Below are positions 26,838-58,071 of a stretch of DNA of 64,000 nucleotides, piece after piece. The stretch is from NCBI GenBank assembly GCA_964535935.1, contig CAZHWM010000004.1, positions 47,569 to 111,568 of the forward strand. Reading direction: 5' to 3'. The DNA is from an uncultured Planctomycetales bacterium. GTDB taxonomy: Bacteria > Omnitrophota > Gorgyraeia > Zapsychrales > Zapsychraceae. The position numbers and the translations under genes are program-made. Each line of letters starts with the position of its first letter. Positions within the stretch are counted from its first letter, which is position 1. The notes under the pieces were generated by a model. That model saw only the letters and a program-made list of their open reading frames with translations, searched no databases and had not been told where the DNA came from.

Positions 26838-26891
26838 GGAATATATTTTATTTATAAAAATTGTGTTGTTTATAGTCTGTGGAGAGGATGG

Positions 26892-34741: not shown

Positions 34742-34762
34742 ACTTATTCTTCTATTATTTTT

Positions 34763-34835
34763 GGGTCGGTAGCTCAATTGGGAGAGCGCTTGGTTCGCAA
34801 TCAAGAGGTTGGGGGTTCGATTCCCCTCCGATCCA
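34763..34835 (+). tRNA. tRNA-Ala (anticodon CGC)
   Basis: Hand-folded cloverleaf: 7-bp acceptor stem with G3:U70, D-stem GCTC/GAGC, anticodon loop TTCGCAA, T-arm GGGGG TTCGATT CCCCT, discriminator A73, no encoded CCA. Confidence 0.8.
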
Positions 34836-34942
34836 TAAAATATATATAAGGATATAGATGTTTTAGATGTAATAAATAAAAGTTTGTTTTTTTTCGTATA
34901 AAGAGGTATAATAGTACCTGTTTACTTAAAAAGAGATTTACT

Positions 34943-35374: not shown

Positions 35375-35451
35375 TGAAAAGAGGATAAACAGAAGATAAT
35401 AAAGATAATATAAATGGAAGTCACAATAGTTTAGGAACATTAGGAGAGATT

Positions 35452-37723: not shown

Positions 37724-38263
37724 CTAAGAAATAGTTTTTGCATGTCTATATGTAGGGGCATTTTTTGGGGTTTTACCTTTTCTATTATGGTATTCTAGAT
37801 AAGTGAGGGGGGTGCCTTTACCAAGAGAGATAGTATCTATGATGTTTGCGATAAAAAGAGTATGGGTCCCTATATCTAATTTTTTTGTTACCTTTGCCTC
37901 GATTGCTGAGAGAGTATGTTCTGTAAGTATAGGACAACCTGTTGTCCCTATTTTAAATGAGATATTAACAAGTTTATTCACATCTCTTCCTGACTTGAAG
38001 CCGAAAGGGAGGATATAATTCATAGGAGCTGATTCTGATATAACAGATACAGCTAGGACCCCACTTTTTCCTATATATTCGTGTGTTAGATTATCTTTAT
38101 GTATCCCCACTGCAATCCGTTCTGGTTCAGCAGTAACTTGAAAGACAATATTCGCTAATTGGGCGTTTAATTTCCCGTTGAAACAGGAGGATATTATATA
38201 GACTCCATAGCTAAGTGTCTGTAATACATATTCGTTAATTTTAGTCATTTTTATCATTTTCAA
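37724..38263 (-). CDS. Flavin reductase-like (FMN-binding split-barrel) protein
   Basis: 179 aa; flavin reductase-like domain pattern; last gene of the minus-strand stress operon; the start may be the internal ATG at 38248. Confidence 0.6.
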   Translation of the reverse strand: MKMIKMTKINEYVLQTLSYGVYIISSCFNGKLNAQLANIVFQVTAEPERIAVGIHKDNLTHEYIGKSGVLAVSVISESAPMNYILPFGFKSGRDVNKLVNISFKIGTTGCPILTEHTLSAIEAKVTKKLDIGTHTLFIANIIDTISLGKGTPLTYLEYHNRKGKTPKNAPTYRHAKTIS

Positions 38264-39494: not shown

Positions 39495-39551
39495 ATTTTT
39501 TCTCCCTTTAGGGAAAAGATGATAGTATCTTTTTAGTCGTATAGTTTTATT

Positions 39552-40082
39552 TTATTGACTTTTGCTAGAGGGAGATTGCTTGGTCCTTGTAGCCAGTTCA
39601 CGATCTATCATAAACATGCCATTTTGTGAGCCTTCTATCAGTTTAAGTTGTTGTACAATAGCCTTTACAGAGGCTTCTTCTTCAACTTGTTCATTTACGA
39701 ACCATTGCAAAAAGACTTCAGTTGCCAAATCATTCTCTTTTCTTGCAATATCTACGAGTTCTGATATCATTGCTGTTATTTTTTGCTCATGATTATATGC
39801 TGCTTTAAATGCATCTAAGGCAGATTCCCATTTTAAAGGAGGGTTTTCTATGGCTTGTAATATTACTCTTCCATCACGTTCTTTTATATAATCAAATATT
39901 TTTTCTGCATGGATTATTTCTTCAGTATATTGTATTCTCATCCAGTTAGCCGCACCGGGCATATCTATGGAATCGAACCATGCAGACATAGCAAGATAGA
40001 GATAGGCAGAATAAAACTCGGCATTGACTTGTTTGTTTAGGGCCTCTTGCATTTTTCCTGTTATCATTCTTAATTCCTCCAT
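39552..40082 (-). CDS. Non-heme ferritin
   Basis: 176 aa; ferritin-like four-helix diiron signature (E…EExH…E…QxxEE). Confidence 0.8.
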   Translation of the reverse strand: MEELRMITGKMQEALNKQVNAEFYSAYLYLAMSAWFDSIDMPGAANWMRIQYTEEIIHAEKIFDYIKERDGRVILQAIENPPLKWESALDAFKAAYNHEQKITAMISELVDIARKENDLATEVFLQWFVNEQVEEEASVKAIVQQLKLIEGSQNGMFMIDRELATRTKQSPSSKSQ

Positions 40083-40459
40083 AATCCGTGCAGATTACAG
40101 TATGCACGTACTTCTATTATATTTATATTTTCATCTGCATTAATTTCAAATTTTGCTTCAGGGATGTCCCCAGGATTAAAAAATTCCCTATATGATTTAT
40201 TTCCTGTGTTAATTTGTATCCATTCTATATAATGTGCATCTTCCATAGGATGGGGGCTGCTGCCTACTTTTACAATAATCCCATTTGTTGTTTTCTCAAG
40301 AATAGGAACATGTTTTTCTGTAGAGGCGTCTATGGAATTCTCTGTGCAAAGTGTCATTGGTTTTTCACAACATACCAGAGCAGGTTTACCTGTATGGACT
40401 ACTTCTACTATGTTACCGCATATTTCACATTTGTAGATTTGAAGTTTTTTTACAGTCAT
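40070..40459 (-). CDS. dfx: Desulfoferrodoxin (2Fe superoxide reductase)
   Basis: N-terminal desulforedoxin motif YKCEICGNIVEV…LVCCEKPM and C-terminal SOR domain (…HP…H…C..H); start placed at the ATG at 40459 after GAGGGAAG; the listed ORF extends further upstream. Confidence 0.85.
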   Translation of the reverse strand: MTVKKLQIYKCEICGNIVEVVHTGKPALVCCEKPMTLCTENSIDASTEKHVPILEKTTNGIIVKVGSSPHPMEDAHYIEWIQINTGNKSYREFFNPGDIPEAKFEINADENINIIEVRAYCNLHGLWRN

Positions 40460-40481
40460 GATCTTCCCTCTTTTTGCAGGG

Positions 40482-40510
40482 TTTATATAATATAATAGAT
40501 TTATAGGCAA
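40482..40510 (-). promoter_or_regulatory. sigma70-type promoter candidate for dfx (TTGCCT, 17 nt, TATAAA)
   Basis: On the minus strand: -35 TTGCCT (40510-40505), 17-nt spacer, -10 TATAAA (40487-40482), ~22 nt upstream of the dfx ATG. Confidence 0.3.
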
Positions 40511-40552
40511 GATTTAATGGGCTTGCTATATTTATGTAGAGATATTGGCCTA

Positions 40553-41125
40553 TTACCAATTTTCCCCAAGCAGTTCAAAATGTGCCTGTGGATGTGCACA
40601 TGCTGGGCATTTTTCAGGGGCCTCTTCACCTTCATGGAGGTAGCCGCAGTTTCTGCATCGCCATATTACTTTACCATCTCGTTTAAATACTCTACCTGCT
40701 TCTATGTTTGCAGCAAGCTCTTTATAGCGTTTTTCATGTTGTTTTTCTGCTACTGCTATTGCCTCAAATATTTTTGCTATGTCTTCGAATCCCTCTTCAC
40801 GTGCTATTTTGGCAAACTCAGGATACATTTTTGTATGTTCATAGTTTTCTCCTGCCGCGGCGGCTTTGAGGTTTTCTAGTGTTGTCCCGATTATACCTGC
40901 GGGGAATGTTGCGGTAATTTCGACTTCCCCACCTTCGAGCAACTTAAATAATCTTTTAGCATGTTCTTTTTCTTGATTTGCAGTTTCTTCAAATATAGCT
41001 GCCATTTGAATCAATCCTTCTTTTCGCGCTTTGGCTGAAAAGTAGGTATAACGGTTGCGTGCCTGTGATTCACCTGCAAAAGCTGTGAGGATATTTTTTT
41101 CTGTTTTTGTTCCTTTTAAAGACAT
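40553..41125 (-). CDS. rbr: Rubrerythrin
   Basis: 190 aa; ferritin-like diiron domain plus a C-terminal rubredoxin-like CxxC…CxxC (WRCRNCGY…CPAC). Confidence 0.9.
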   Translation of the reverse strand: MSLKGTKTEKNILTAFAGESQARNRYTYFSAKARKEGLIQMAAIFEETANQEKEHAKRLFKLLEGGEVEITATFPAGIIGTTLENLKAAAAGENYEHTKMYPEFAKIAREEGFEDIAKIFEAIAVAEKQHEKRYKELAANIEAGRVFKRDGKVIWRCRNCGYLHEGEEAPEKCPACAHPQAHFELLGENW

Positions 41126-41158
41126 TGTATTGCCCCCTTTTTTTTGTTTGTTATAGAT

Positions 41159-41974
41159 TTATAGAAATGGCACTATATCCATTTCATCCCTAATGCCAAG
41201 TCTAGTTAAAGCAAAGTCATATTTTACGGGATCATTAGGTTGTATGTATTTGAATTTCTCTGTAATCTCAATAGCTGTTTTAAGGTCAACATTTTTTCTT
41301 TTTGTGAAGCCAAGGGTATGTGCTATCGTAAACATATGTGTGTCAACTGGTACGATAAGTATAGAAGATGGAATACCTTCCCAGCAGCCCGGATCTACTT
41401 TATCACTACGTACCATCCATCGCAAGAATAGATTGAATCTTTTGCAAGCACTTCCTTTAGAAGGGGAGGGAATAAGAAAGTTAATCTTATTACCAGAAGC
41501 CTTTTTTATCTCCTCACAGAACCCCATTAGCGCATAAATTATTTTGGGATGTTTTTTATTGTTAAGATGAGATTTAAATCCTGTTTCCAAAGAACCATAT
41601 TGTTTGATTATCCCTCTTATTCCAATGAGTAATGAAAACATGTCTTCTTCTGTTGTAAATCTATATTTAAATCCTAATATATCTTTTTTTATCTCAGAAG
41701 GAGATTTCGTCATTAAATATAGCCTTGGTCTTTTCCCTAATATATTTAGGATTTTTTGTACATTTTTTAATATTTGGTTTACTTTCCCGTATGCCAAGCT
41801 GGATGCTATTAATCCAACGATTTCTTGATCCAATCTGTCTTTATAGTTATATAAAAATTCAAGAGGATCAGGATGTATAAATTTGTAATGATTATAATAA
41901 TCGTATAATCTATTGAGTTGTATCTTTAATTCATCAGTGTGGCTCAGTTTTTTGTTTTGTTTTTTGTAAGTCAT
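41159..41974 (-). CDS. Conserved hypothetical protein (DUF2400/TIGR02757-like by recollection)
   Basis: 271 aa; co-directional and tightly packed between the Fur-family gene and rbr; the family assignment is from memory and unverified. Confidence 0.35.
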   Translation of the reverse strand: MTYKKQNKKLSHTDELKIQLNRLYDYYNHYKFIHPDPLEFLYNYKDRLDQEIVGLIASSLAYGKVNQILKNVQKILNILGKRPRLYLMTKSPSEIKKDILGFKYRFTTEEDMFSLLIGIRGIIKQYGSLETGFKSHLNNKKHPKIIYALMGFCEEIKKASGNKINFLIPSPSKGSACKRFNLFLRWMVRSDKVDPGCWEGIPSSILIVPVDTHMFTIAHTLGFTKRKNVDLKTAIEITEKFKYIQPNDPVKYDFALTRLGIRDEMDIVPFL

Positions 41975-42374
41975 TGGATTTGTCTTTACATTTAGGACAG
42001 ATTCCCCAAAATTCTACATTATGTTTAACCATTTTATAACCATATTTTTTTTCGATGATTTTATCTACTGCTATATTTTGTTTTAGAGATATATCATCTA
42101 TTTTTCCACAGTTTGTACATTTGATATGATAGTGTGGATGAGTATGACTGTCATAGCGAGCAGGACTCCCATCTATATCTAGTTTTAGTATTACTCCTTC
42201 ATTCACTAGTTTTTCAAGATTCCTATATATTGTACTTAAGCTTACTTTAGGTAGTCTTTTTTTTACTTTTTCATAAAGTTCTGTTGCATCAGGATGTGTG
42301 TATGTTTTTGTAAGTTCTTCTATAATAATCTGCCCTTGGGTTGTTTTTCTTGTTTTTTTTATATTATTTATCAT
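41934..42374 (-). CDS. Fur family transcriptional regulator (PerR-like)
   Basis: 146 aa; Fur-family HTH (…LSTIYRNLEKL…) and metal sites (HxHxH, CxxC…CxxC); heads the oxidative-stress operon. Confidence 0.8.
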   Translation of the reverse strand: MINNIKKTRKTTQGQIIIEELTKTYTHPDATELYEKVKKRLPKVSLSTIYRNLEKLVNEGVILKLDIDGSPARYDSHTHPHYHIKCTNCGKIDDISLKQNIAVDKIIEKKYGYKMVKHNVEFWGICPKCKDKSNDLQKTKQKTEPH

Positions 42375-42387
42375 AGTTTATTATCGC

Positions 42388-42408
42388 TAATGCTAATCAT
42401 TAGCATTA
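42388..42408. promoter_or_regulatory. Perfect 9-1-9 palindrome (TAATGCTAATCATTAGCATTA): candidate PerR/Fur-family operator
   Basis: AATGCTAAT-C-ATTAGCATT inverted repeat 14 bp upstream of the PerR-like start; same spacing as the classical 19-bp Fur box. Confidence 0.55.
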
Positions 42409-42690: not shown

Positions 42691-44208
42691 ATGTCAGAAA
42701 GGAACAATGGTAGGATTGCTTTTTTAAATTCACCTTACATATTAAAAGAAGATTTTCATCAACATATGCCACCGCTTTCTCTTCTCTATCTTGCTACTTA
42801 CATGAAAAGCAATGGATTTGATGTACGGATTTATAATTTAGATAGGTTTGTTAGGGATAAAGGATTTCGATACCTAGGCTATAATCTTAATAGTTTATTT
42901 AATAATCTTTCTTTGTTTAACCCTCAGATGATAGGCATAACATGTCAATATTCCGCAAGATGGCCATTTGTACAGAGGCTGATTGAGATAATTAAAAGAT
43001 GGTTTAAAGATATTCCTGTTGTGATAGGTGGAATTCATCCTACGTGTTTCCCTGAATATTGCCTCTGTTCAAGTAAGGCAGACTACATAATTTTAGGAGA
43101 AGGCGAGTTTAGTTGCTTGGAATTATTTAAACATGTTCTCTCAAGAACGACACCTTCTGGTTTAGATGGTGTGGCTTTTAGAGATAATAGTAAAATTATC
43201 TGCAACCCAAAGAAGAGTTTTATAACTGACCTTGATACTTTGCCTTTTCCTGATTATTCTTTGATTGATATAAATAGATATAAACAGCTTTGCAGGAAAG
43301 ATTATATAGCTCAATTAAAGGGAATGTATTTCCCAGTTTTAACTTCTAGGAGTTGTCCTAATCAGTGTAGGTATTGTAATTTATATCTTGTGCATGGTAG
43401 AAAATGGAGGGCGAGAAGTCCTGATAATGTAGTTAAGGAACTCAGCTATTTGGTGGAAACATATAAGGTAAGACAGTTTGCATTTGTAGATGATAATTTT
43501 TCATTCTCAAGAGAGCGTACTATTGCTATACTTAAAGAGATAGTTAATGGTAAAATAGGTCCTATTAAGTTTATCCCTTTAAATGGCTTATCAGTAAAGA
43601 CTTTGGATGATGAGGTTATATGGTATTTAAAGAAAGCAGGAGCACTTGAGGTATCCTTAGCGATTGAATCAGGAAGTGAATATATAAGAAATACTGTTTA
43701 TAATAAAAAGGTGTCTACGAAAAAGATAATAGAAGTAGTGAGGGCATGTAAAAAATACAATTTAATATGTAAGGCCTTTTTTATGGTAGGTGCACCAGAA
43801 GAGACAGATGATACTATTAAAGAGAGTATAGATTTGATGCGGGAGATTAGAATACCTGCTAGTTTTAGTATTACAACTCCTTTTAAGGGGACAAAGTTAT
43901 ATGATTATTATATGAAAAAAAAACTTATTAGTGAAGACGAGCTTAAGCGAGGTTACTTTTTGGATCTTCGTTTACCTATAGGAAATACAAAAAGTTATAC
44001 GCAGATTATTCAGTGGAGAAGAAAACTTATGATTTATAATATATGGTATTCGTTACCGGAGCTACTTAAACACTCAAAACTACTTACATTTCATAATTTT
44101 AATAGACTTTTGGCAACGGTTTTATTTCCAAAGAAACTTACTATGGATATTATAAATTATGCTATGGATAAGTATATGCCGTTATTTCGATATCGAAAAA
44201 ATGTATAA
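42691..44208 (+). CDS. B12-binding-domain radical SAM protein
   Basis: 505 aa; N-terminal cobalamin-binding-like domain and CxxxCxxC (SCPNQCRYC) radical SAM motif. Confidence 0.8.
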   Translation: MSERNNGRIAFLNSPYILKEDFHQHMPPLSLLYLATYMKSNGFDVRIYNLDRFVRDKGFRYLGYNLNSLFNNLSLFNPQMIGITCQYSARWPFVQRLIEIIKRWFKDIPVVIGGIHPTCFPEYCLCSSKADYIILGEGEFSCLELFKHVLSRTTPSGLDGVAFRDNSKIICNPKKSFITDLDTLPFPDYSLIDINRYKQLCRKDYIAQLKGMYFPVLTSRSCPNQCRYCNLYLVHGRKWRARSPDNVVKELSYLVETYKVRQFAFVDDNFSFSRERTIAILKEIVNGKIGPIKFIPLNGLSVKTLDDEVIWYLKKAGALEVSLAIESGSEYIRNTVYNKKVSTKKIIEVVRACKKYNLICKAFFMVGAPEETDDTIKESIDLMREIRIPASFSITTPFKGTKLYDYYMKKKLISEDELKRGYFLDLRLPIGNTKSYTQIIQWRRKLMIYNIWYSLPELLKHSKLLTFHNFNRLLATVLFPKKLTMDIINYAMDKYMPLFRYRKNV

Positions 44209-47037: not shown

Positions 47038-47088
47038 TTGACAGCATTTATTTTGTTTGTTATATTTGATAATGAAAACCATTATCAA
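47038..47088 (+). promoter_or_regulatory. sigma70 promoter (TTGACA, 17 nt, TATATT) overlapped by a Fur-box-like palindrome
   Basis: TTGACA 47038-47043, -10 TATATT 47061-47066; palindrome TTGATAATG-AAAAC-CATTATCAA at 47066-47088 matches 16/19 of the GATAATGATAATCATTATC consensus. Confidence 0.6.
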
Positions 47089-47104
47089 ATAGAAGGGATA
47101 AAAA

Positions 47105-47578
47105 ATGTCTGGTAATATGAATGCGAAACGACCGTGGTGGCATGGAAGATTTAGAGGATGTGGATATAGGATTACTGCAAGTAGGGAGGTTATATTGAAA
47201 GTGTTGTCGGAAACCAAAAAGCATCTTAGTGCAGAAGAAATATTTATTAGTGCTCATAAACTTAATCCGGCTATAGGTCTTACTACTATATATAGGACAT
47301 TAGATATATTGGTGAGTATGGGACTCATTTCTAAATTTGATTTTGGCGATGGCAGATCGAGATATGAGTTATCAGAAGGTCCAGATGGTAGTAGACATCA
47401 CCATCATCTTATATGTACATCGTGTAATAGAGTTATAGATTATACTGATTTTATAGATGAAGAGGTTGATTTATTAATACGGACAGAAAAAGGGCTTTCT
47501 GAGAAATATAATTTTAAGATATCACATCATTTAATTCAATTTTATGGTTTGTGTAGTAATTGTCAGAAGCGTAGTTAG
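47105..47578 (+). CDS. fur: Fur family metalloregulator
   Basis: 157 aa; Fur HTH (…LTTIYRTLDIL…), HHHH metal site, CxxC…CxxC. Confidence 0.85.
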   Translation: MSGNMNAKRPWWHGRFRGCGYRITASREVILKVLSETKKHLSAEEIFISAHKLNPAIGLTTIYRTLDILVSMGLISKFDFGDGRSRYELSEGPDGSRHHHHLICTSCNRVIDYTDFIDEEVDLLIRTEKGLSEKYNFKISHHLIQFYGLCSNCQKRS

Positions 47579-47621
47579 CGATTGTTTTTTGTTTGTTGAA
47601 AACAGCCAATTTTTATAAATA

Positions 47622-47648
47622 TTGATGAAAACGGTTATCATTATTATT
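47622..47648 (+). promoter_or_regulatory. Second Fur-box-like site (TTGATGAAAACGGTTATCATTATTATT)
   Basis: Shares the ATGAAAACnnTTATCA core with the site at 47066-47088; ~60 bp upstream of the DUF5320 gene. Confidence 0.35.
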
Positions 47649-47706
47649 AATATGTCTTTAAATTTTTACATTAAAAGGATATATATTTAAAGAAAGGAGG
47701 TGCTGT

Positions 47707-48030
47707 ATGCCAAGAGGAGATGGGACAGGTCCGGCAGGTGCAGGCCCCATGACAGGTGGCGGTTGGGGATATTGTGCAGGATTTAATGTCCCTGGATATC
47801 TGAATGTAGGTGCCGGGGGATTTGGTTTTCCTTCTGGTCGTGGACTAGGATTAGGCTTGAGGGGCAGGAGAGGGTTTAGAAATATGTTCTATGCAACAGG
47901 TCTGCCTGCTTGGGCAAGAGGAGAATATCCTCAAAAACAAGATGCCTCTGTATTGAAAGCCGAAGAGGAGGCTTTAAAAAAGAGGTTAGAGGCAGTTCGT
48001 AAGCAACTTGATAGTTTAGAACAGTCATAA
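47707..48030 (+). CDS. DUF5320-like glycine-rich protein
   Basis: 107 aa; N-terminal MPRGDGTGPxGxGPMTGGGxGYCAGF…GYxNxG…GLPxWAR motif string plus a C-terminal coiled coil; GGAGG RBS. Confidence 0.6.
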   Translation: MPRGDGTGPAGAGPMTGGGWGYCAGFNVPGYLNVGAGGFGFPSGRGLGLGLRGRRGFRNMFYATGLPAWARGEYPQKQDASVLKAEEEALKKRLEAVRKQLDSLEQS

Positions 48031-48045
48031 GATTAATAGCTTAAT

Positions 48046-48120
48046 GCTATTCTGCACTATTTAACCTTGTTAAATAGTGAAAAATGCACAAATCAACAAG
48101 GTTAAATAGTGCAGAATAGC
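48046..48120. repeat. Perfect 26-bp inverted repeat with a 23-nt loop (large hairpin)
   Basis: GCTATTCTGCACTATTTAACCTTGTT (48046-48071) and its exact reverse complement at 48095-48120. Confidence 0.9.
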
Positions 48121-48157
48121 GGAATAGGGAATTTAGTGAATTGTGAAGGGAGTGATT

Positions 48158-48550
48158 ATGCGTATTGCAATTTCTACAGATAACGGTATGGTATCTGCAC
48201 ATTTTGGTAGGTGTCCTGTTTTTACGATTGTAGAAATAGAGAATGGTAATATTCTTAAAAAAGAACAAATAGAGAATCCAGGTCATCAACCAGGGCTTAT
48301 ACCGCAATTTTTACATGAGAAGGGGATAAATTGTATTGTAGCAGGTGGTATGGGTATGAGAGCAAAGGGTTTTTTTGAGGAGTTTGGTATAGAAACCATA
48401 ACGGGTATATCAGGAAGTGTTGATGATGTTATAGATGAACTGATTAATGGTACTTTGAAAGGGACAGATAGTTTGTGTATTCCGGGTGAAGGAAAAGGTT
48501 ATGGTTTGGATAAACAGATATGCGATCATGGTTATAACCATGGTTGTTAA
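48158..48550 (+). CDS. NifX/NifB-C-terminal-like dinitrogenase FeMo-cofactor-binding domain protein (Nitro_FeMo-Co family)
   Basis: MRIAISTDNG…FGRCPVF…GINCIVAGGMG pattern of the Nitro_FeMo-Co family; ATG at 48158 after GAAGGGAG. Confidence 0.7.
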   Translation: MRIAISTDNGMVSAHFGRCPVFTIVEIENGNILKKEQIENPGHQPGLIPQFLHEKGINCIVAGGMGMRAKGFFEEFGIETITGISGSVDDVIDELINGTLKGTDSLCIPGEGKGYGLDKQICDHGYNHGC

Positions 48551-48573
48551 TTATGATGGTGGGGGAGGTATTT

Positions 48574-48897
48574 ATGAAAATATGTGTCACATCAGAAGGA
48601 AATAATTTGGACGCTATGGTTGATCAGCGTTTTGGCAGGTGTGCCTATTTTATTTTTGTTGATACAGATACTATGGAATATGAGTCTGTGGAAAATACTA
48701 ATGTATCAGCAACTGGTGGGGTAGGAATTAAATCTGCCCAGCTTGTGTCTGAGAAGGGGGCTAGTGTGGTATTGACTGGGAAAGTTGGACCCAATGCTGC
48801 TAAGGCATTAGAGGCAGCTGGCATTGAGGTTATCACAGATGTATCTGGTCCGGTGAAAGATGCTATAGAAAGATATAAGGAAGGTAGGGGCGCTTAG
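48574..48897 (+). CDS. Second NifX-like Nitro_FeMo-Co domain protein
   Basis: MKICVTSEG…FGRCAYF…GASVVLTGKVGPNA; ATG at 48574 after GGGGGAGG. Confidence 0.7.
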   Translation: MKICVTSEGNNLDAMVDQRFGRCAYFIFVDTDTMEYESVENTNVSATGGVGIKSAQLVSEKGASVVLTGKVGPNAAKALEAAGIEVITDVSGPVKDAIERYKEGRGA

Positions 48898-49512
48898 TTG
48901 GATAATGAGCTTATTGAGAATTATAATAAATATACTGAAAGATTCTTACTTTTTAAACGCTTTGGTTATGATATAGAGAAGGAACGACAGGTTATTATAG
49001 AAAAGGCATTACCTTTAAACGGAAAGATACTAGAGATAGGCACTGGTAAAGGGTATTTGACTCTACAGTTAGCACAAAATGGTTATAAGTTTGTTTCGAT
49101 AGATATTTCTAAGGAAGAACAGAGATTTGCAAAAATGAGGTTGAGATATTTGGGGTTGGAGAACTATGTAACCTTTTTGGTATCAGATGCAGGAAATACA
49201 GATTTTTCAGATGGGGAGTTTGATGTAATTTTTTCAGTTAACTTAACCCATCATCTTAGTCAACCTTTTAATGTTATAGATGAAATGATAAGGATATTAT
49301 CGCCTTCCGGTAAGATAGTTTTAAGTGATTTTTCTGAAAAAGGCTTTGCCTTGGTGGATAATATTCATAAAAGTGAAGGGCGGGTTCATACAAGATCTCC
49401 TTATGCCCTTAATGAGATAGCAGATTATTTATTGAAAAGGAATTTTAAGATTGAGGAGTATAGAGGTATATTTCAGGATACTTTTATAGCTACAAATAAA
49501 CAGATAAGGTGA
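48898..49512 (+). CDS. Class I SAM-dependent methyltransferase
   Basis: ILEIGTGKGYLTL motif I; likely TTG start abutting the previous stop. Confidence 0.65.
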   Translation: MDNELIENYNKYTERFLLFKRFGYDIEKERQVIIEKALPLNGKILEIGTGKGYLTLQLAQNGYKFVSIDISKEEQRFAKMRLRYLGLENYVTFLVSDAGNTDFSDGEFDVIFSVNLTHHLSQPFNVIDEMIRILSPSGKIVLSDFSEKGFALVDNIHKSEGRVHTRSPYALNEIADYLLKRNFKIEEYRGIFQDTFIATNKQIR

Positions 49513-49516
49513 ATTT

Positions 49517-50374
49517 ATGATTATTTCAATTGCCAGTGGTAAGGGGGGAACAGGAAAGACTACCGTTGCAGTGTCAATGGCGTTGTCTTTGAATAATGTC
49601 CAATTTCTTGATTGCGATGTAGAGGCTCCTAATGCGCATATTTTTTTAAATCCACGTTTTTATAAAAGAACTTCGGGGTATATTACTGTACCGAAAATAG
49701 ATGAAGACAAATGTACTTATTGTGGAAAATGTGCTGAGGCTTGCAATTATAATGCTATTGCTGTAATGAGCAATAATGACAACAGCCGTAGGCGTATTTT
49801 ACATTTTCCTAATCTTTGTCATGGGTGTGGCGTGTGTGGCTACGTTTGTCCTGTAAATGCTATAAAGGATAGTAAAAGAGAGATAGGTATAATAGAAGAA
49901 GGTGGTGTAGGATGTGATATTGAGTTCATTCATGGGGAATTGCATATATCTGAGGCTATAGCATCTGCCTTAATAAGGCAGGTTAAAGACCTTATCAGAA
50001 AAGAAAAGCTGGTTATAATTGATGCTCCACCTGGTACATCTTGTCCTGTTATAAATGCAGTCTCAGGCAGTAATTTTTGTATATTGGTGACTGAACCAAC
50101 TCCCTTTGGTTTTAATGATTTTGTATTGGCCTCAGAATTGATGAGGGAAATGAATATAGCCTTTGGGGCAATTATTAATCGATGTGATTTGGGCGATAAT
50201 AAAGTAGAGGAATATTGCAGAAAAGAGGATATTCCTATATTGTTGAAGATACCCTTTGGGAAGGATATAGCAGCTGCCTATTCAAAGGGGGAGCCTCTTG
50301 TAAAGATACTGCCAGAATATAAACAGATATTTAGGGATATCTTTTACAAAATAGAAAGGATTTGCAAAGCGTGA
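49517..50374 (+). CDS. MinD/Mrp-type P-loop ATPase with an inserted 2x[4Fe-4S] ferredoxin domain
   Basis: Deviant Walker A SGKGGTGKTT, CxxCxxCxxxCN and CHGCGVCGYVCP ferredoxin motifs. Confidence 0.8.
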   Translation: MIISIASGKGGTGKTTVAVSMALSLNNVQFLDCDVEAPNAHIFLNPRFYKRTSGYITVPKIDEDKCTYCGKCAEACNYNAIAVMSNNDNSRRRILHFPNLCHGCGVCGYVCPVNAIKDSKREIGIIEEGGVGCDIEFIHGELHISEAIASALIRQVKDLIRKEKLVIIDAPPGTSCPVINAVSGSNFCILVTEPTPFGFNDFVLASELMREMNIAFGAIINRCDLGDNKVEEYCRKEDIPILLKIPFGKDIAAAYSKGEPLVKILPEYKQIFRDIFYKIERICKA

Positions 50375-51234
50375 GGCAGGTTATTATACTTAGTGGCAAG
50401 GGGGGGACAGGTAAGACTGTTATAACAGCTGCTTTTGCCTATCTAGTACATAATAAGGTATTGGCAGATTGTGATGTAGATGCGGCCAATATGCACATAC
50501 TTTTATCCCCAGAAATAAAAGAACGGTATGTTTTTCATGGGGGACAGCGTGCTTTTATTGACAGTTCAAAATGTCTAAGATGTGGTAGGTGTAGGCAGTA
50601 TTGTCGTTTTACTGCTATTAACGATAATTTTTTAGTGGATGGTAGTATGTGTGAGGGGTGTGGGTTTTGTAAATTAGTATGTCCTGCAGAGGCTGTATCT
50701 ATGAAAGAGGTAATATCTGGAGAATGGTTTGTATCATCAACTAGATATGGGAAGATGGTTCATGCCCGGCTCGGTATAGCAGAGGAGAATTCGGGGAAAT
50801 TGGTTGCTTTGGTGAGAAAGAAGGCTAAACAGATAGCAGAGGAAGATAATTGCGATTGGGTTATTATAGATGGTCCACCTGGGATAGGGTGTCCTGTAAT
50901 ATCTTCTTTATCAGGAGTAGATTATGCATTGGTTGTAACAGAGCCCACCCTTTCAGGGTTGCATGATGCGGATAGGGTTATAAAAGTTGCTAGGCATTTT
51001 GGTATATCTGTAGGTGTTGTTATTAACAAATATGATTTGAATAAAGAAATGGCAGATAAAATAGAACGCTATTGTGATCAGAACAATGTGGCCTTTTTAG
51101 GTAGAATAGCATTTGATAGGGCTGTTGTGGATGCTGTTGTCTCTGGTAAAACTATAATGGAAGTCTCAGGTCTTGATGCTTCTTATGAGATTACCTGTAT
51201 TTGGGATAAAATAACCCAGGGATTGTCTAATTAA
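50362..51234 (+). CDS. Second MinD/Mrp-type P-loop ATPase with a ferredoxin-like Cys-rich insert
   Basis: SGKGGTGKTV, CLRCGRCRQYC / CEGCGFCKLVCP; non-ATG start (TTG 50362 or GTG 50371); overlaps the upstream gene. Confidence 0.75.
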   Translation: MQSVRQVIILSGKGGTGKTVITAAFAYLVHNKVLADCDVDAANMHILLSPEIKERYVFHGGQRAFIDSSKCLRCGRCRQYCRFTAINDNFLVDGSMCEGCGFCKLVCPAEAVSMKEVISGEWFVSSTRYGKMVHARLGIAEENSGKLVALVRKKAKQIAEEDNCDWVIIDGPPGIGCPVISSLSGVDYALVVTEPTLSGLHDADRVIKVARHFGISVGVVINKYDLNKEMADKIERYCDQNNVAFLGRIAFDRAVVDAVVSGKTIMEVSGLDASYEITCIWDKITQGLSN

Positions 51235-51269
51235 TATATAAAATTTATAGAATGAGAGGTTTTGTATAT

Positions 51270-52142
51270 ATGAGGACATATCTTGAATGTATTCCATGCT
51301 TTTTAAGGCAAGTGTTGGAGATTGGTAGGTTGATTACATCTGATGAAACGGTGCATAAGTCTTTGATTGATGAAGCCTGTATGCTTGTTCCGGAGATTTC
51401 TATGAATATGCCTCCGCCTGAGATAGCCCCACGTATTTATAGTATGATTAAGGCTAAATGTGGAGATAGAGATTTTTATCGGGATATAAAGGAAAAAAGC
51501 AATAGAATGGCATTAAATCTTTATCCAAAATTAAAGAGAAAGATTGAGGCATCTGATGATAGACTTCTTACAGCTTTAGAGTTAGCTATAATGGGTAATA
51601 TAATAGACTATGCAGCTAAAAATACATTAGATATCGATTCAGAGATAGAAAAGTTGTTTAATGGCGAATTAGACAGTATTAAGAAGACAACGTTTCATTA
51701 TGATTTATTTAGGGAGGATTTAAGTAAGGCTAAAATAGTATTGTATTTAGGAGATAACGCAGGAGAAGTAGTTTTTGATAGGGCTTTTATAGAGGAGTTT
51801 TATAAGGAGAAGGAGGTTTTCTTTGCAGTTAGAGGATCTGCAGTAATCAATGATGTATTGATAGAGGATGCACATGTAGCCGGTATTGATAAAGTGGCAA
51901 AGGTTATTTCAAGCGGTGTGGATACTCCTGGGCTTGTTTTGAATAGATGTTCAGAGGATTTTTTACAGATTTTCAGAGAAGCAGATATTATTATCAGTAA
52001 AGGGCAGGGAAATTATGAGGCATTAGATGGTGTTGATACTGATAGACGGATATATTTTCTTTTCAGAGTTAAATGTCCGGTGATTGCCAAACATGCAGGG
52101 GTTAGTTTAGGAGAGATAGCCTTGCTTAAAGGTGATAGATAA
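51270..52142 (+). CDS. DUF89 family (ARMT1-like damage-control phosphatase / metal-dependent sugar phosphatase) protein
   Basis: N-terminal YLECIPCFLRQ motif and overall DUF89 architecture; the alternative start is 51252. Confidence 0.6.
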   Translation: MRTYLECIPCFLRQVLEIGRLITSDETVHKSLIDEACMLVPEISMNMPPPEIAPRIYSMIKAKCGDRDFYRDIKEKSNRMALNLYPKLKRKIEASDDRLLTALELAIMGNIIDYAAKNTLDIDSEIEKLFNGELDSIKKTTFHYDLFREDLSKAKIVLYLGDNAGEVVFDRAFIEEFYKEKEVFFAVRGSAVINDVLIEDAHVAGIDKVAKVISSGVDTPGLVLNRCSEDFLQIFREADIIISKGQGNYEALDGVDTDRRIYFLFRVKCPVIAKHAGVSLGEIALLKGDR

Positions 52143-52159
52143 GGAGGGATAAGTTGTAA

Positions 52160-52879
52160 ATGAAGATAACAGTATTATTTAATAGTAGAGCTGTTAGTAG
52201 TAGCTTACAGGTAGGATGGGGATTTTCTGCTCTTATTGGAGATAATATTATTTTTGATACAGGAGAGAAGGGAGAGTTTTTATTTCATAATATTAATGCA
52301 TTAGAGATAGATTTAAATATAATTACTACTGCTGTTATATCACATGAGCATTGGGATCATACCGGAGGCTTATGGCAGTTACTTGACTATAGAAAGGATA
52401 TAGATGTATACGCCTGTCCGGGTTTTAGTGATGAGTTTAAAAATAATGTTCGTCTACATGGTGGGAGACTTTTTGAAATGGAGAGTTTTTATGAGATAAC
52501 TCAGGACATCTGGGTTACTGGAGAAATCCCCGCTGTATATAAACGGGAAAAGACCCCAGAACAGGCCTTGATTATAGACACTGAAAGAGGGCTTATTGTG
52601 ATAACAGGATGTGCGCATCCAGGTATTATTAATATGCTGAATATTATCTCTGAACACTTTCAAGGTAGGCCGTTATATGCTGTTGTGGGAGGATTTCATT
52701 TGCTAAACAAGCCAGCATCTGTTTTTAATCTAATCGTAGAGACGTTTAAAGATATGGGGATAAAGAAGGTAGGGCCTACGCATTGTACAGGAAGTGAAGC
52801 AGAGAATGTATTTAGACAAGTTTACAGAGAAGATTTTTTTAATATGAGTGTTGGTACGGTGTTGAATATTGGTTATTAG
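52160..52879 (+). CDS. MBL-fold metallo-hydrolase
   Basis: HEHWDHTGG motif; 239 aa. Confidence 0.7.
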   Translation: MKITVLFNSRAVSSSLQVGWGFSALIGDNIIFDTGEKGEFLFHNINALEIDLNIITTAVISHEHWDHTGGLWQLLDYRKDIDVYACPGFSDEFKNNVRLHGGRLFEMESFYEITQDIWVTGEIPAVYKREKTPEQALIIDTERGLIVITGCAHPGIINMLNIISEHFQGRPLYAVVGGFHLLNKPASVFNLIVETFKDMGIKKVGPTHCTGSEAENVFRQVYREDFFNMSVGTVLNIGY

Positions 52880-52937
52880 TTTTGTAATAATCTGAGTTCT
52901 TTATAATTTTTAATTTAAAATATCTTTAGCTGTGGTC

Positions 52938-52966
52938 TTGACAAAATATATTTTTTTTGGTATATA
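52938..52966 (+). promoter_or_regulatory. sigma70-type promoter candidate (TTGACA, 17 nt, TATATA) with a ~210-nt leader before the MIPS gene
   Basis: -35 TTGACA at 52938-52943, -10 TATATA at 52961-52966. Confidence 0.35.
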
Positions 52967-53179
52967 TTAGCAGTCTAGCTTTAGGAGTGCTAAAATTATA
53001 TTAATTAAGCAGGGAATTCAAAATAATTATAATTTTCTTTGAGTGCTTATCATATAATTACTCATCTTTAAAAATATATTTAAGGATTATTTTTTCTTAA
53101 ATATTTTACCTCTATTTTATTATAACTCTTAAATTTTTGTTTGTTTTTATTTATATCTTTAAAAAGGAGGTGTATTATT

Positions 53180-54283
53180 ATGGATGCTGTTAAGGTGTTT
53201 ATTATTGGTATAGGAAACTGTGCCAGTTCTTTAATCCAAGGAATTCATTATTATAAGAACAAATCTGCAAATGATGCAATAGGGCTAATGCATTGGAAGA
53301 TAGGTAACTATTTGCCTTCTGATATTCAGGTAGTAGGTGCATTTGATATTGATAAGAGAAAAGTGGGTAAAGATGTGCACGAAGCGATATTTTCTTTGCC
53401 CAACTGTACGGCTGTATTTTGTCCTAATATCCCTCCTTCAGGAGTAACGGTGCATATGGGTAGAATTTTAGATGGTTTTTCTGAACATATGAAAAATTAT
53501 AATGAGAAAAATACATTTGTTTTGGCAGAGAAAGCAGAGCCTAATAAAGATGAGGTCGTACGTCTCTTGAAAGACAGTCAGGCAGATATGGTACTGAATT
53601 ATCTGCCTGTTGGATCAGAAGAGGCTACTAAATTTTATGCTGAATGTGCATTGGAGGCAGGTGTGGCATTTATTAATAATATACCAGTCTTTATTGCAAG
53701 TGATCCTATATGGGCCAAACGGTTTAAGGAGAAGAATATCCCTATAGTAGGTGATGACATTAAAGCTCAACTTGGTGCTACTATTACACATAGGACACTT
53801 ACTGATTTATTTAAGAAACGAGGTGTAAAACTGGATAGAACCTATCAGCTTAATACTGGGGGAAATACTGATTTTCTTAATATGCTTAATCACAGCAGAT
53901 TGGCATCTAAAAAGGAATCTAAGACTGAGGCAGTGCAGTCTGTTGCTGCTGAACGTTTAGATGAGGAGAATATTCATGTTGGTCCAAGCGATTATGTCCC
54001 ATGGCAAAAGGATAATAAGGTATGCTTTCTACGTATGGAAGGAAGGTTATTTGGAGACGTACCTATGAATTTGGAATTACGGTTATCTGTTGAGGATTCG
54101 CCAAATTCTGCAGGAGTGGCTATTGATGCTATACGATGTACAAAACTTGCGCTTGAGCGTGGGATAGCTGGTGTATTGGAAGCTCCTTCTGCTTATTTTT
54201 GTAAGCATCCGCCAAAACAATATCCTGATGATGAGGCATTTCGTAGGGTAGAGGCATTTATATCAGGAGGAGATAGTGAGTAA
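53180..54283 (+). CDS. myo-Inositol-1-phosphate synthase (archaeal/bacterial type)
   Basis: IIGIGNCASSLIQGIHYY N-terminal NAD-binding motif and overall MIPS architecture; ATG at 53180 after AAGGAGG. Confidence 0.8.
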   Translation: MDAVKVFIIGIGNCASSLIQGIHYYKNKSANDAIGLMHWKIGNYLPSDIQVVGAFDIDKRKVGKDVHEAIFSLPNCTAVFCPNIPPSGVTVHMGRILDGFSEHMKNYNEKNTFVLAEKAEPNKDEVVRLLKDSQADMVLNYLPVGSEEATKFYAECALEAGVAFINNIPVFIASDPIWAKRFKEKNIPIVGDDIKAQLGATITHRTLTDLFKKRGVKLDRTYQLNTGGNTDFLNMLNHSRLASKKESKTEAVQSVAAERLDEENIHVGPSDYVPWQKDNKVCFLRMEGRLFGDVPMNLELRLSVEDSPNSAGVAIDAIRCTKLALERGIAGVLEAPSAYFCKHPPKQYPDDEAFRRVEAFISGGDSE

Positions 54284-55604
54284 ACTGAAATGCCTCATTA
54301 TTGCTGCTGGCCGAGGCAGCAGGCTTAAACAGGAATGTGATTGTAAACCTTTATACCCTTTGGCAGGTATCCCGTTAATTGAGCGTAGTATAAGATCTGC
54401 CATGGAGGCAGGTGCTGATGATTTTTATGTAGTGGTAGGATACAAGGCTGATGAGGTAAGTAGTTTTTTATCTGTCTTGGCTAGCAGGTTAGGTATTAAT
54501 ATTACTACCATTTATAATGAAGAATGGGCAAGTAGGGAAAACGGCTTCTCAGTACTTAAGGCTCAGAGATATCTGGGGGAGCCGTTTCTCCTTCTTATGT
54601 CCGATCATCTTTTTGCTCCTTCTATTGCCTCAGCTGTTGTTTCGTGTGGGGTATGTAAGGATGAAATAGCATTAGCAGTTGATAGGGATATAGATAATCC
54701 TAATATAGATATAAATGATGTTACTAAGGTTAATGTATGCTCAGGTAAGGTTAAGGCTATAGGTAAGGATTTGATTGAGTATAATGGGTTTGATACAGGG
54801 GTTTTTTATTGTTTTCCTGCTATATTTAGTGCTTTGCATAAGGCAGTATCTTTATCTGATAGTTCTTTGTCAGCTGCAGTAAAACTGATGGCAGATAATG
54901 CTAAGGTAAAGGCAGTAGATGTTAGTGGTTCTTTTTGGATTGATGTAGATGACTCCAATAGTGTTAGAAAGGCAGTTTCTGGATTGTTAATTAATTGTGC
55001 AGGTAAAGGAAATGATGGGCCTGTTTCTAAATGGTTAAACAGACCGTTATCTAGACGAATTTCGTCTATACTCATAAATTACCCTGTTACACCTAATCAT
55101 ATAAGTGTATTTTCGTTTGCTATTTCTGTTATTGCTGCCTTATTGTTTATGTTAAATGGATATATTTCATTGCTGATAGGTGGCATTTTAGCCCAGTTTG
55201 CATCTATTGTGGATGGTTGTGATGGTGAGATAGCACGTATAAAATTTATGCGAAGTTGCTACGGTGGATGGCTTGATGCGGTTTTAGATCGTTATGCAGA
55301 TGCATTGTTGTTGTTTGGATTGATGTGGCATGAATGGAAGAGATCAGGTATGGAGATAGTTTTATTAGTAGGTTTTGCTGCAGTTATTGGTTCATTTATG
55401 CTTAGCTATACTGCAGACAAATATGACGGGCTTATGAGAGATAAGTTTTCTCCTTCTGTTTCCGGTTTAAGGCTGGGACGCGATGTGCGTGTTTTTTTGA
55501 TATTTCTTGCAGCATTGTTTAATAAATCATATTGGGCATTGATTATAATAGCAGTGATAATGAATTTAGAAACAGTACGTAGGATGATTGTATGCCGTAA
55601 ATAA
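54276..55604 (+). CDS. Bifunctional CTP:inositol-1-phosphate cytidylyltransferase / di-myo-inositol-1,3'-phosphate-1'-phosphate synthase (IPCT/DIPPS)
   Basis: N-terminal nucleotidyltransferase (IIAAGRGSRL) fused to a C-terminal membrane CDP-alcohol phosphatidyltransferase domain with DGxDGxxAR…G…D…D; lies next to MIPS. Confidence 0.7.
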   Translation: MSKLKCLIIAAGRGSRLKQECDCKPLYPLAGIPLIERSIRSAMEAGADDFYVVVGYKADEVSSFLSVLASRLGINITTIYNEEWASRENGFSVLKAQRYLGEPFLLLMSDHLFAPSIASAVVSCGVCKDEIALAVDRDIDNPNIDINDVTKVNVCSGKVKAIGKDLIEYNGFDTGVFYCFPAIFSALHKAVSLSDSSLSAAVKLMADNAKVKAVDVSGSFWIDVDDSNSVRKAVSGLLINCAGKGNDGPVSKWLNRPLSRRISSILINYPVTPNHISVFSFAISVIAALLFMLNGYISLLIGGILAQFASIVDGCDGEIARIKFMRSCYGGWLDAVLDRYADALLLFGLMWHEWKRSGMEIVLLVGFAAVIGSFMLSYTADKYDGLMRDKFSPSVSGLRLGRDVRVFLIFLAALFNKSYWALIIIAVIMNLETVRRMIVCRK

Positions 55605-57644: not shown

Positions 57645-57815
57645 TTATTCTTGAATTATGGCCTCTACAGGGCATACTGCAGCACATGCTCCGCAGTCAG
57701 TGCAGAGATCAGGATCGATAACATAAATAGGATCGCCTTCGCTGATAGCTTCTACAGGACATTCTGGTTTGCATGTCCCGCATGCTGTACATTGGTCTGT
57801 AATTTTGTATGCCAT
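57645..57815 (-). CDS. 2x[4Fe-4S] ferredoxin (56 aa), not in the ORF track
   Basis: Manual minus-strand translation MAYKITDQCTACGTCKPECPVEAISEGDPIYVIDPDLCTDCGACAAVCPVEAIIQE; two CxxCxxCxxxCP motifs; AGGAG RBS 8 nt upstream. Confidence 0.8.
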   Translation of the reverse strand: MAYKITDQCTACGTCKPECPVEAISEGDPIYVIDPDLCTDCGACAAVCPVEAIIQE

Positions 57816-58071
57816 AATATTACTCCTTTTTTAGTATATTTATATTTAGTTAAAACTTAATTTATTTTTTTACGGGTTGTATTTTGTCACATATCTCATG
57901 TTTAATTAATCTTACTACAAAAAAATAATATGACAATATAATTTTGATAATAATTTTTTTTGTTTGATAAAATTTCACTTTAACGGAAAGCTACTCTACA
58001 GTATAATAAAAAATTAATATAATCTTTTAATAAATATAAATTTTATAGGAGTATGTAAGAAAGAGGGTTGT

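Follow-up and report, generated by a model that had tools for sequence, protein, structure and literature searches.

Genes and families of the operon

The 64-kb stretch of contig CAZHWM010000004.1 that we analyzed (called the window below, always at its full length) carries at positions 47105–52879 of the + strand nine co-directional open reading frames (ORFs) of an uncultured Omnitrophota anaerobe, which form a Fur-headed operon with a core comparable to the orange protein (ORP) gene cluster of Desulfovibrio vulgaris and with a probable role in the handling of Fe-S clusters. In an ORF check of the window all nine were found at the positions given in a preliminary description of this DNA, and every protein family named there was recovered in Pfam searches: a Fur-type regulator, a DUF5320 protein, two proteins with the Nitro_FeMo-Co domain (NifX-A and NifX-B), a class I S-adenosylmethionine (SAM)-dependent methyltransferase, two CbiA/ParA P-loop ATPases with two Fer4 motifs each, an ARMT1-like/DUF89 protein and a Lactamase_B hydrolase of the metallo-beta-lactamase (MBL) fold (Table 1).

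Gaps of 0–30 nt, which had been claimed for the entire row of genes, are roughly correct for genes 3–9 only, where they range from −13 to +35 nt. At the first two junctions the spacers measure 128 and 127 nt; they house the second Fur box and a hairpin with a 26-bp stem, respectively. For NifX-A, NifX-B and the DUF89 protein, the starts at 48158, 48574 and 51270 are likely to be the true ones, as indicated by ribosome-binding sites and by the N-termini of homologues. We saw no convincing canonical intrinsic terminator either at the operon end or after DUF5320.

Table 1. Coordinates of the genes and regulatory features of the operon in the window
Feature	Position	Strand	Characteristics
Sigma-70-type promoter, TG-extended	47038..47066	+	TTGACA-17 nt-TATATT; 11 of 12 consensus positions, best match of the scan of 46.5–53.4 kb
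Fur box 1 (predicted)	47067..47087	none	TGATAAT-GAAAACC-ATTATCA, TGATAATGAAAACCATTATCA; directly after the −10 hexamer, over the likely transcription start
Fur-family regulator, 157 aa	47105..47578	+	PF01475, 7e-31; HHHH...CxxC and C-terminal CxxC motifs
Fur box 2 (predicted)	47621..47645	none	ATTGATGAAAACGGTTATCATTATT, core site TGATGAAAACGGTTATCA at 47623–47640; fur–DUF5320 spacer
DUF5320 protein, 107 aa	47707..48030	+	PF17253, 3e-27; N-terminal motif MPRGDGTGPxGxGPMTG..GYCAG, coiled-coil C-terminus
Hairpin	48046..48120	+	26 perfect base pairs, 23-nt loop, no U-tract, −46.5 kcal/mol; between DUF5320 and NifX-A
NifX-A, 130 aa	48158..48550	+	PF02579, 1.5e-21; stand-alone ‘Di-Nase’ domain of MrpORP (Orp9); HFGRC, PGHQPGLIP and C...CDH motifs
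NifX-B, 107 aa	48574..48897	+	Nitro_FeMo-Co, 3e-27; homologue of orange protein (ORP/Orp8); best PDB match 2WFB
Class I SAM-dependent methyltransferase, 204 aa	48898..49512	+	Methyltransf_11/25/31
ATPase 1, MinD/Mrp-type P-loop, Orp3/Orp4 type	49517..50374	+	Pfam; inserted 2x[4Fe-4S] ferredoxin domain
ATPase 2, MinD/Mrp-type P-loop	50362..51234	+	2x[4Fe-4S] insert; 32% identical to its paralogue, ATPase 1; start TTG 50362 or GTG 50371
DUF89/ARMT1-like protein, subfamily I	51270..52142	+	PF01937, 9e-68; ORF opens at 51252
MBL-fold hydrolase, 239 aa	52160..52879	+	Lactamase_B; HEHWDH motif; 7DCK / TM1679 / 2P4Z group

Predicted Fur operators and their conservation

A Fur-box-like palindrome at the fur promoter and a related site before the second gene had been proposed earlier; both were found, and both recur in related loci. 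Box 1 matches the classical 19-bp Fur consensus GATAATGATAATCATTATC at 17 of 19 positions, with 0.09 matches of three or fewer mismatches expected per 64-kb window. An equal match count was reached in none of 100 shuffles of the window, nor was an equal match seen in any of 2000 shuffles of the spacer. Box 2, which by direct reading of the sequence is identical to box 1 at 15 of 20 positions, has a match with at most four mismatches that was reached by 8 of 2000 shuffles; weak promoter-like hexamers at 47596–47623 and 47612–47641 overlap it.

The comparison included six related Fur-headed loci, labeled as in the titles of the source records: L001, L003 and L008 (Omnitrophota), L004 (Aureabacteria), L011 (a metagenome-assembled genome, MAG, of Clostridia) and L019 (WOR-3). 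In all six, the −10 box that lies upstream of fur is followed by a site of the form ATAATG(G/A)AAA(C/T)CATT(A/T)TCA, and a TTGACA box occupies the same relative position upstream of fur in L003, L004, L008, L011 and L019. The second site is situated just before DUF5320 in L001, L003, L004, L008 and L019, though not in L011. In L004, L008 and L011, these sites are the only matches with four or fewer mismatches in 10–15 kb; L001 and L019 hold one or two more. For 13 of 14 spacers the best match was equalled in <4% of composition-matched shuffles, in most of them in <0.5%. Counting the window, the operators are conserved in position over seven loci with four phylum-level labels (Omnitrophota, Aureabacteria, WOR-3 and Clostridia), and this conservation across phyla appears to be a new observation.

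Because the operator footprint is conserved in position across loci, we consider it likely that the operon is under direct Fur control, with autoregulation included; the footprint makes this the most secure inference of our study. The position of the operator predicts repression, and the signal sensed is likely to be iron. Fur would bind the operator abutting the −10 box of its own promoter, as well as the second operator before DUF5320, giving repression at plentiful iron and expression as iron falls. A similar logic is seen in the suf operon of Escherichia coli, also an Fe-S operon that has a Fur box over its promoter and is switched on when iron is scarce. This is a regulatory analogy only: the proteins are unrelated, and in the operon described here fur is itself the first gene and the second box would gate the genes downstream.

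The hairpin that follows DUF5320 is unique in the window, and for this reason (a single occurrence) we rejected its interpretation as a repeat or mobile element. L001, L008, L011 and L019 have hairpins of unrelated sequence in this place, and L003 and L004 lack one there; neither the hairpin nor the leaders matched a family in Rfam. The hairpin is probably an RNA stabilizer, a processing site or a partial terminator. One could speculate that such a strong hairpin sets the level of the first two genes apart from that of the rest of the transcript.

An ORP-type core and its possible role

The report of the orange protein is said to date from 2004, and that of the ORP complex from 2011. In D. vulgaris Hildenborough the complex comprises Orp3 and Orp4, which are MinD-like and carry two [4Fe-4S] motifs each, the small Orp5, the orange protein Orp8 with a Nitro_FeMo-Co domain, and Orp9 (MrpORP), in which an Mrp/NBP35 part is joined to the ‘Di-Nase’ domain (PMC6345978, PMC8359166). 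The genes are arranged as orp5-orp4-orp3 / orpR / orp7-orp8-orp9, with two divergent sigma-54 operons activated by OrpR together with IHF (PMC6345978, PMC8359166). Orp3, Orp4 and Orp8 co-purify, and MrpORP loads Fe-S clusters onto them in vitro (PMC6345978); OrpR, which senses redox state via a [4Fe-4S] cluster, has been characterized (PMC8359166). Still, the physiological role of the ORP proteins was called ‘still unclear’ in a 2021 paper by the group that described them (PMC8359166).

There is little doubt, as far as protein sequences can tell, that the core of the operon is an ORP-type system, i.e. homologous to the one in D. vulgaris, because NifX-B is close to the orange protein of Desulfovibrio gigas, NifX-A is the Di-Nase domain and both ATPases have the architecture of Orp3/Orp4. 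The similarity of NifX-B to the D. gigas protein (2WFB) covers the full length, with an E-value of 1.9e-23 and about 50% identity. NifX-A aligns with positions 264–365 of the NCBIfam MrpORP model, i.e. with its Di-Nase part only (104.6 bits against a cut-off of 450), and the consensus of its family, HFGhC / H.PG..P / C-dh, agrees with the published Di-Nase motifs HFGxC / PHxPG / CDH (PMC6345978). Many relatives of NifX-A from Desulfobacterota-type loci are Mrp fusions of 400–496 aa. The ATPases, a MinD-like paralogue pair in which each member has two [4Fe-4S] motifs, were matched to Orp3 and Orp4 by described architecture. Other features in common with the D. vulgaris system are occurrence in anaerobes only, a regulator of a type that responds to a metal or an Fe-S cluster and, possibly, a small Gly-rich protein encoded alongside. 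The system had been called undescribed in the preliminary description, with no demonstrated function for any of its proteins in this arrangement; this cannot be maintained, as the core matches a cluster (Orp3/4/5/8/9) with the published protein interactions, cluster transfer and regulator cited above.

The differences from D. vulgaris are several. Here we have a single sigma-70-type operon with Fur in place of the two divergent sigma-54 operons with OrpR and IHF, and a Di-Nase domain that stands alone, whereas Orp9 is a fusion with Mrp/NBP35. The DUF5320 protein, with its one conserved Cys, sits where D. vulgaris has the Cys-rich Orp5 type, a homologue of the Cys-rich, [2Fe-2S]-binding Dde_3197, so that the two are matched by place only. 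Three genes, for the methyltransferase, the DUF89 protein and the MBL hydrolase, are extra. Fur control, the split architecture and these accessories are what is new at the locus; the ORP kind itself is known, if functionally unsettled, and the locus as such would not surprise a specialist.

The ATPase family is very common in anaerobes; it has >8000 close database matches, with hundreds of genome matches among the matches listed; the closest relatives are almost all MAGs of Candidatus Omnitrophota. We used the ATPase alignment (A1) to collect 80 loci from species-representative genomes, and counted genes in 83 ATPase-anchored loci, on the same strand and within ~6 kb. The profile HMMs for this count were derived from the window proteins and from unlabelled neighbours that recurred. 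The loci come from roughly 25 bacterial and archaeal lineages; the source titles of the 80 name Omnitrophota, Planctomycetota, Chloroflexota, Desulfobacterota, Clostridia, Acidobacteriota, Ignavibacteria, Armatimonadota, WOR-3, Zixibacteria, methanogens, Bathyarchaeia, Thermoplasmatota, Asgard archaea and further groups.

In this set ATPase 2 stands beside ATPase 1 in 81 of the 83 loci, usually with an overlap of 4 nt, and genes of the NifX-B and NifX-A types are present in 74 and 68, respectively. Next in frequency come DUF5320 (39), a small Cys-rich protein (34), Zn_ribbon_8 (32), NifU_N/IscU-like (29) and Mrp/NBP35 (29) proteins, followed by DUF134 (19), MBL (19), DUF89 (16), radical SAM (13), sigma-54 activator (12), DUF364 (11), methyltransferase (10), Fur (10), DUF59 (6), DtxR (4) and FeoB (3). 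At least one gene of Fe-S assembly type (IscU-like, Mrp/NBP35, DUF59 or FeoB) was seen in 20 of the 31 loci with complete flanks. From their partial occurrence it follows that DUF5320, DUF89, MBL and methyltransferase proteins are recurrent accessories and not the obligate partners that they had been taken for. The neighbourhood itself is conserved in other genomes: L001, from the MAG GCA_054039975.1, has a 97%-identical ATPase and identical gene order and flanks, other Omnitrophota and Aureabacteria share the gene order of the cluster, and the core extends over the 83 loci.

The regulators depend on lineage. Fur genes were seen in Omnitrophota, Aureabacteria, WOR-3, one Clostridia MAG, some Dehalococcoidales and one Planctomycetia locus. 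Chloroflexota and archaea have DUF134, the loci with sigma-54 activators are mostly of the Desulfobacterota type, and DtxR was found in a few archaeal loci and one from Clostridia. Fur, DtxR and OrpR with its [4Fe-4S] cluster are sensors of metal or of Fe-S clusters.

The full nine-gene order was observed, among the surveyed loci, in the window and its 97%-identical relative L001 only, and the genes for Fur, the methyltransferase, DUF89 and MBL are each lacking in the majority of ORP loci. One could conclude that these four genes are unrelated to the ORP core and merely share its transcript in this lineage. We think such an operon of convenience highly improbable, as Fur heads ORP genes in loci of Omnitrophota, Aureabacteria, WOR-3 and Clostridia, with the second operator directly before DUF5320, and as DUF89 is tied to ORP genes in at least 10 bacterial and archaeal lineages, with 19 of 30 long DUF89-anchored loci having ORP core genes within 6 kb (see below).

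An extended operon was seen in the Omnitrophota locus L003, where segments 5713–6371 and 8714–9958 contain genes for a small ferredoxin, an EncFtn-like protein (encapsulated ferritin) and small Cys-rich, NifU_N/IscU-like and Mrp/ParA proteins; genes for HypA, thioredoxin, DnaJ, a second methyltransferase and NikR are located downstream.

The genes of ATPases 1 and 2 overlap in the window as well, and both proteins have a Walker A motif and two CxxCxxCxxxC motifs. In 84 homologues of ATPase 1, the Walker A sequence GKGGTGKT, the eight ferredoxin Cys residues, Cys33 (in DCDV) and Cys176 (in DAPPGTSCPV) are invariant; the Walker A motif and the ferredoxin Cys residues are so in ATPase 2 as well. 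Conservation of the switch-II Cys, three residues past DxPPG, is 100% in ATPase 1 and 98% in ATPase 2 (Cys177), and that of the switch-I Cys (DCD) is 99% and 62%. Since the paralogues are obligatorily paired and the switch Cys residues conserved, we infer that the two proteins may pair as a heterodimer, whose interface would hold a nucleotide-coupled metal site. A metal site of this kind parallels those of other SIMIBI metallochaperones.

The nearest solved folds found by Foldseek are archaeal MinD, Cfd1, ApbC and ATPase-type HypB, none of which has the ferredoxin insert; structure searches found no solved structure for this ATPase subfamily. A NifH-like class is not supported, as MinD, Cfd1, ApbC and HypB rank first in Foldseek. 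With the Mrp/NBP35 carriers (ApbC, Nbp35-Cfd1), HypB, CooC and NifH, the ATPases share the deviant Walker A motif GKGGxGKT and the dimeric fold class; the paralogue pair is reminiscent of Nbp35-Cfd1, and the Cys residues by the nucleotide switches could hold a bridging cluster. In contrast to these carriers, a two-cluster ferredoxin domain is inserted here, absent from all solved relatives, and there is no C-terminal CxxC.

The proximity to MinD may also be read as pointing to cell division or positioning, with MinD-like ATPases that place the septum or a polar structure, a function originally suggested for the Desulfovibrio ORP complex, and metal centres that merely sense the redox state. The AF2 monomer model of the ATPase (pLDDT 89.8) ends in a long C-terminal helix (residues 267–284), and published observations include morphological defects of an orpR mutant, polar location of MrpORP and C-terminal amphipathic helices of Orp3/Orp4 (PMC6345978, PMC8359166). 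We find this role improbable, because Cfd1, ApbC and HypB are structurally about as close as MinD, and because the recurrent neighbours contain no minC/E, ftsZ or similar genes but, instead, Fe-S and iron genes and metal-sensing regulators. Also, the switch-II motif DAPPGTSC resembles the signature of Mrp/NBP35 proteins.

The N-terminal part of the DUF5320 protein is Gly/Arg-rich (32% Gly, net charge +6), with one conserved Cys, Cys24. A closely similar N-terminal motif, MPRGDGTGPxGxGPxTGRG, is shared between DUF5320 proteins and the separate small Cys-rich family, of which the window has no member. At least nine loci (L015, L018, L021, L024, L025, L026, L058, L067 and L076, the last with an extra ferredoxin domain) encode an orange-protein-type Nitro_FeMo-Co domain with a C-terminally fused DUF5320 tail, Gly/Arg-rich and coiled-coil; these calls rest on Pfam recognizing both domains. 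The source titles of the fusion loci name Acidobacteriota, Dehalococcoidia, Syntrophobacterales, Methanobacteriota, Desulfobacterales and Sedimentisphaerales. Such ‘Rosetta-stone’ fusions in other lineages argue that NifX-B and DUF5320 may work together. By described architecture, the fusions look like IssA of Pyrococcus furiosus, which consists of an IPR003731 domain and a cationic Gly-rich tail and forms thioferrate storage nanoparticles (PMC5524996). Fusion of DUF5320 with an ORP domain to give an IssA-like architecture appears to be a new observation. In comparison with IssA, the operon of the window encodes two separate proteins, DUF5320 adds the coiled coil and the conserved N-terminal motif, and ATPases always accompany them.

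This likeness suggests Fe-S storage in place of trafficking: NifX-B and DUF5320 would deposit a thioferrate-like polymer, as IssA does, and the ATPases would load or mobilize the store. The fusions and the Gly-rich, positively charged segment speak for storage, as do the match of NifX-B to MTH1175 of the IssA clade (1.6e-15) and the EncFtn-like gene within the operon of L003. We regard it as unlikely all the same. IssA is made under abundant iron and sulfide, which is the opposite of the repression at plentiful iron predicted from the Fur operator at the −10 box, and its nanoparticles are reported to be homomeric, with no ATPase needed (PMC5524996).

As for the Nitro_FeMo-Co domain, NifX, NafY and the C-terminal part of NifB have the same domain (PF02579) and offer the model of a small protein that brings a complex metallocluster to an ATPase-driven assembly factor or takes one away from it. 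Members of the family considered here belong, however, to the ORP, IssA or MrpORP branches, and in many lineages they have no nif genes beside them. We found no nif gene in the 64-kb window by Pfam searches of ORFs of 150 aa or more with matches (a few ORFs at 25–28 kb and 34–36 kb are matchless), and none among the recurrent neighbours of the 83 loci. A link to nitrogenase was rejected, because the Pfam matches of the window ORFs included no nif gene and indicated other functions. The absence of nitrogenase genes from the window, as had been stated earlier, was confirmed in these terms. The idea of a nitrogenase-independent metallocluster module under Fur control is supported, as is conservation of the Fur sites and of the neighbourhood.

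Handling of Mo/W-Cu thiometalates has to be considered too, as the D. gigas orange protein, with which NifX-B shares ~50% identity, carried a [S2MoS2CuS2MoS2] cluster on isolation (PMC6345978). Homologues binding a Mo(W)-Cu-S cluster could let the operon detoxify or store thiomolybdate. This is very unlikely in our opinion: the linked regulators are Fur, DtxR and OrpR, with no ModE-type regulator found, and the recurrent neighbours include no genes for the transport of molybdate, tungstate or copper or for their cofactors. Furthermore, according to the titles of papers cited in PMC6345978, the Mo-Cu cluster is bound non-covalently and can be assembled on the protein in vitro, which leaves its physiological relevance open.

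We favor, with moderate confidence, the interpretation of the operon as a Fur-controlled member of the ORP family of clusters of strict anaerobes, one that serves as an iron-responsive module for assembly, carrying or mobilization of Fe-S clusters. Fe-S handling is preferred over cell division or Mo-Cu chemistry because of the context, namely the regulators that sense iron or Fe-S clusters, the IscU, Mrp, DUF59 and FeoB neighbours, the Fe-S-binding components and the published in vitro transfer. In such a module NifX-B and the Gly/Arg-rich DUF5320 protein would act as a split IssA-like carrier of anionic Fe-S species, and NifX-A would hold a small Fe-S cluster, as the reported spectroscopy of the homologous domain suggests. 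The ATPases, as a heterodimer with four [4Fe-4S] clusters and with Cys residues at switches I and II, may couple ATP hydrolysis and electron transfer to loading or unloading of the carriers, and may drive cluster reduction or transfer. The methyltransferase, the phosphatase-like DUF89 protein and the MBL hydrolase would make up an accessory set that varies with lineage, their statistical linkage to ORP genes being the part that is shown.

Several points weigh against Fe-S handling. The working hypothesis for ORP in the literature is a role in cell division (PMC8359166), and what the isolated orange protein binds is a Mo-Cu-S and not an Fe-S cluster (PMC6345978). The operon has neither an Mrp/NBP35 nor an IscU-like gene, and our searches of the rest of the window found none; related loci do carry a separate Mrp gene. 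The operator of repressor type predicts induction at low iron, which fits assembly or repair of clusters but is awkward for storage of the IssA kind. Finally, the Fur paralogue is below every NCBIfam equivalog cut-off, those of Fur, PerR and Zur included (the best model, Bacillus-type Fur, gave 128 bits against a cut-off of 220), so that its effector may be Fe, Mn, peroxide or another signal.

The comparative leads make the function of ORP more directly testable. They include the lineage-dependent wiring to iron sensors (Fur, DtxR) or to the Fe-S redox sensor OrpR, the co-occurrence with IscU-like, Mrp/NBP35, DUF59 and FeoB genes, the repeated DUF5320 fusion giving the IssA architecture, and the recruitment of the phosphatase-like DUF89 protein. 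Should they prove right, ORP would stand beside ISC, SUF and NIF as a widespread pathway of Fe-S handling specific to anaerobes, and a context would be found for both DUF5320 and DUF89 subfamily I.

Accessory enzymes and other genes of the window

The methyltransferase had no NCBIfam equivalog at cut-off. Its gene is located directly upstream of the first ATPase gene in Omnitrophota and Planctomycetota loci (L001, L003, L007, L008, L016 and L076).

The DUF89 protein has intact active-site motifs DNAGE and KGQGNYE and three invariant Cys residues, in an N-terminal CxxC and a C-terminal KCP. It is similar over the full length to the subfamily I phosphatases PH1575 (2G8L, 2.4e-42), which has the same three Cys residues, and AF1104 (2FFJ, 2e-38), and retains DNxGE and KGQGNYE. 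Scores with the NCBIfam ‘damage-control phosphatase’ equivalogs were under the cut-offs (191.9 bits against 440 and 151.2 against 500). PH1575 and AF1104 have been assayed as generic ‘damage-control’ phosphatases, whereas the clade considered here is found inside ORP clusters in most of the sampled loci.

This linkage was observed in a reverse scan of metagenome contigs anchored on DUF89 (L086–L165), with counts made on the 30 loci that had at least 8 kb of flank. An ORP core gene was present within 6 kb on the same strand in 19 of them, a core gene or an iron/Fe-S gene in 22, and an MBL gene in 10. A recurrent order in the DUF89-anchored loci was sigma54-EBP, NifX-A, NifX-B, DUF89, DUF5320, small-Cys, DUF5320, Zn-ribbon, NifX-B and DUF1847. 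With a single ~5-kb locus taken per genome, linkage by chance is estimated at well under 1%. The two-way linkage between DUF89 subfamily I and ORP genes appears to be a new observation: we found no literature tying DUF89 to Fe-S metabolism, in a search that did not extend to the main DUF89 paper, nor relevant literature on COG1149/COG1433, DUF5320, 7DCK/TM1679 or Fur with NifX-like proteins.

The linkage of these enzymes to ORP genes suggests an organic phospho-ester or methylated ligand. We offer as a doubtful proposal that DUF89 (CxxC...C), the 7DCK/TM1679-type MBL and the methyltransferase are dedicated ORP components, by which a metallocluster or carrier with such a ligand is built or recycled, so that ORP would do more than pass on plain Fe-S clusters; the ligand may be, for example, a thiol cofactor such as a derivative of CoA or 4′-phosphopantetheine. 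If true, DUF89 subfamily I would gain its first physiological context, and the 20-year-old puzzle of the orange protein would gain a chemical handle.

Outside the operon, Pfam matches in the window include genes of arginine and lysine biosynthesis, UvrA, a block of type II secretion/pilus genes, hybrid-cluster protein, an oxidative-stress island on the minus strand, chaperone genes, FtsH and other unrelated genes. The island (38241–42404) consists of genes for flavodiiron protein, ferritin, rubrerythrin, DUF2400 and a second Fur-family protein, and is arranged alike in L001. This second Fur paralogue (41934–42377, minus strand), next to rubrerythrin and ferritin and with the upstream palindrome GCTAATGCTAATCATTAGC at 42386, probably forms a PerR-like unit. 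Beyond it, at 42691–44208, is a B12-binding radical SAM gene located in the stretch of the lowest GC content of the window (0.29). The gene is missing from L001, which has rsmE immediately after the second Fur gene; it looks like a recent insertion or deletion.

Five ORFs of 509, 204, 162, 196 and 188 aa, situated at 25308–27987 and 34151–36018, had no Pfam match at 1e-8; the first three are directly upstream of the secretin, T2SS-E and T2SS-F genes. The sole Rfam match is a tRNA at 34763–34835.

After the MBL gene, a strong promoter-like sequence TTGACA...TATATA opens the unit at 52937–55604, which is headed by a gene for myo-inositol-1-phosphate synthase; next in the unit is a gene for a bifunctional NTP-transferase/CDP-alcohol phosphatidyltransferase of the di-myo-inositol-phosphate type, and HtpG follows. 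It is chiefly in thermophiles that the di-myo-inositol-phosphate osmolyte pathway is known. An ORF for a 61-aa 2x[4Fe-4S] ferredoxin is located on the minus strand at 57645–57830, between htpG and the gene after it.

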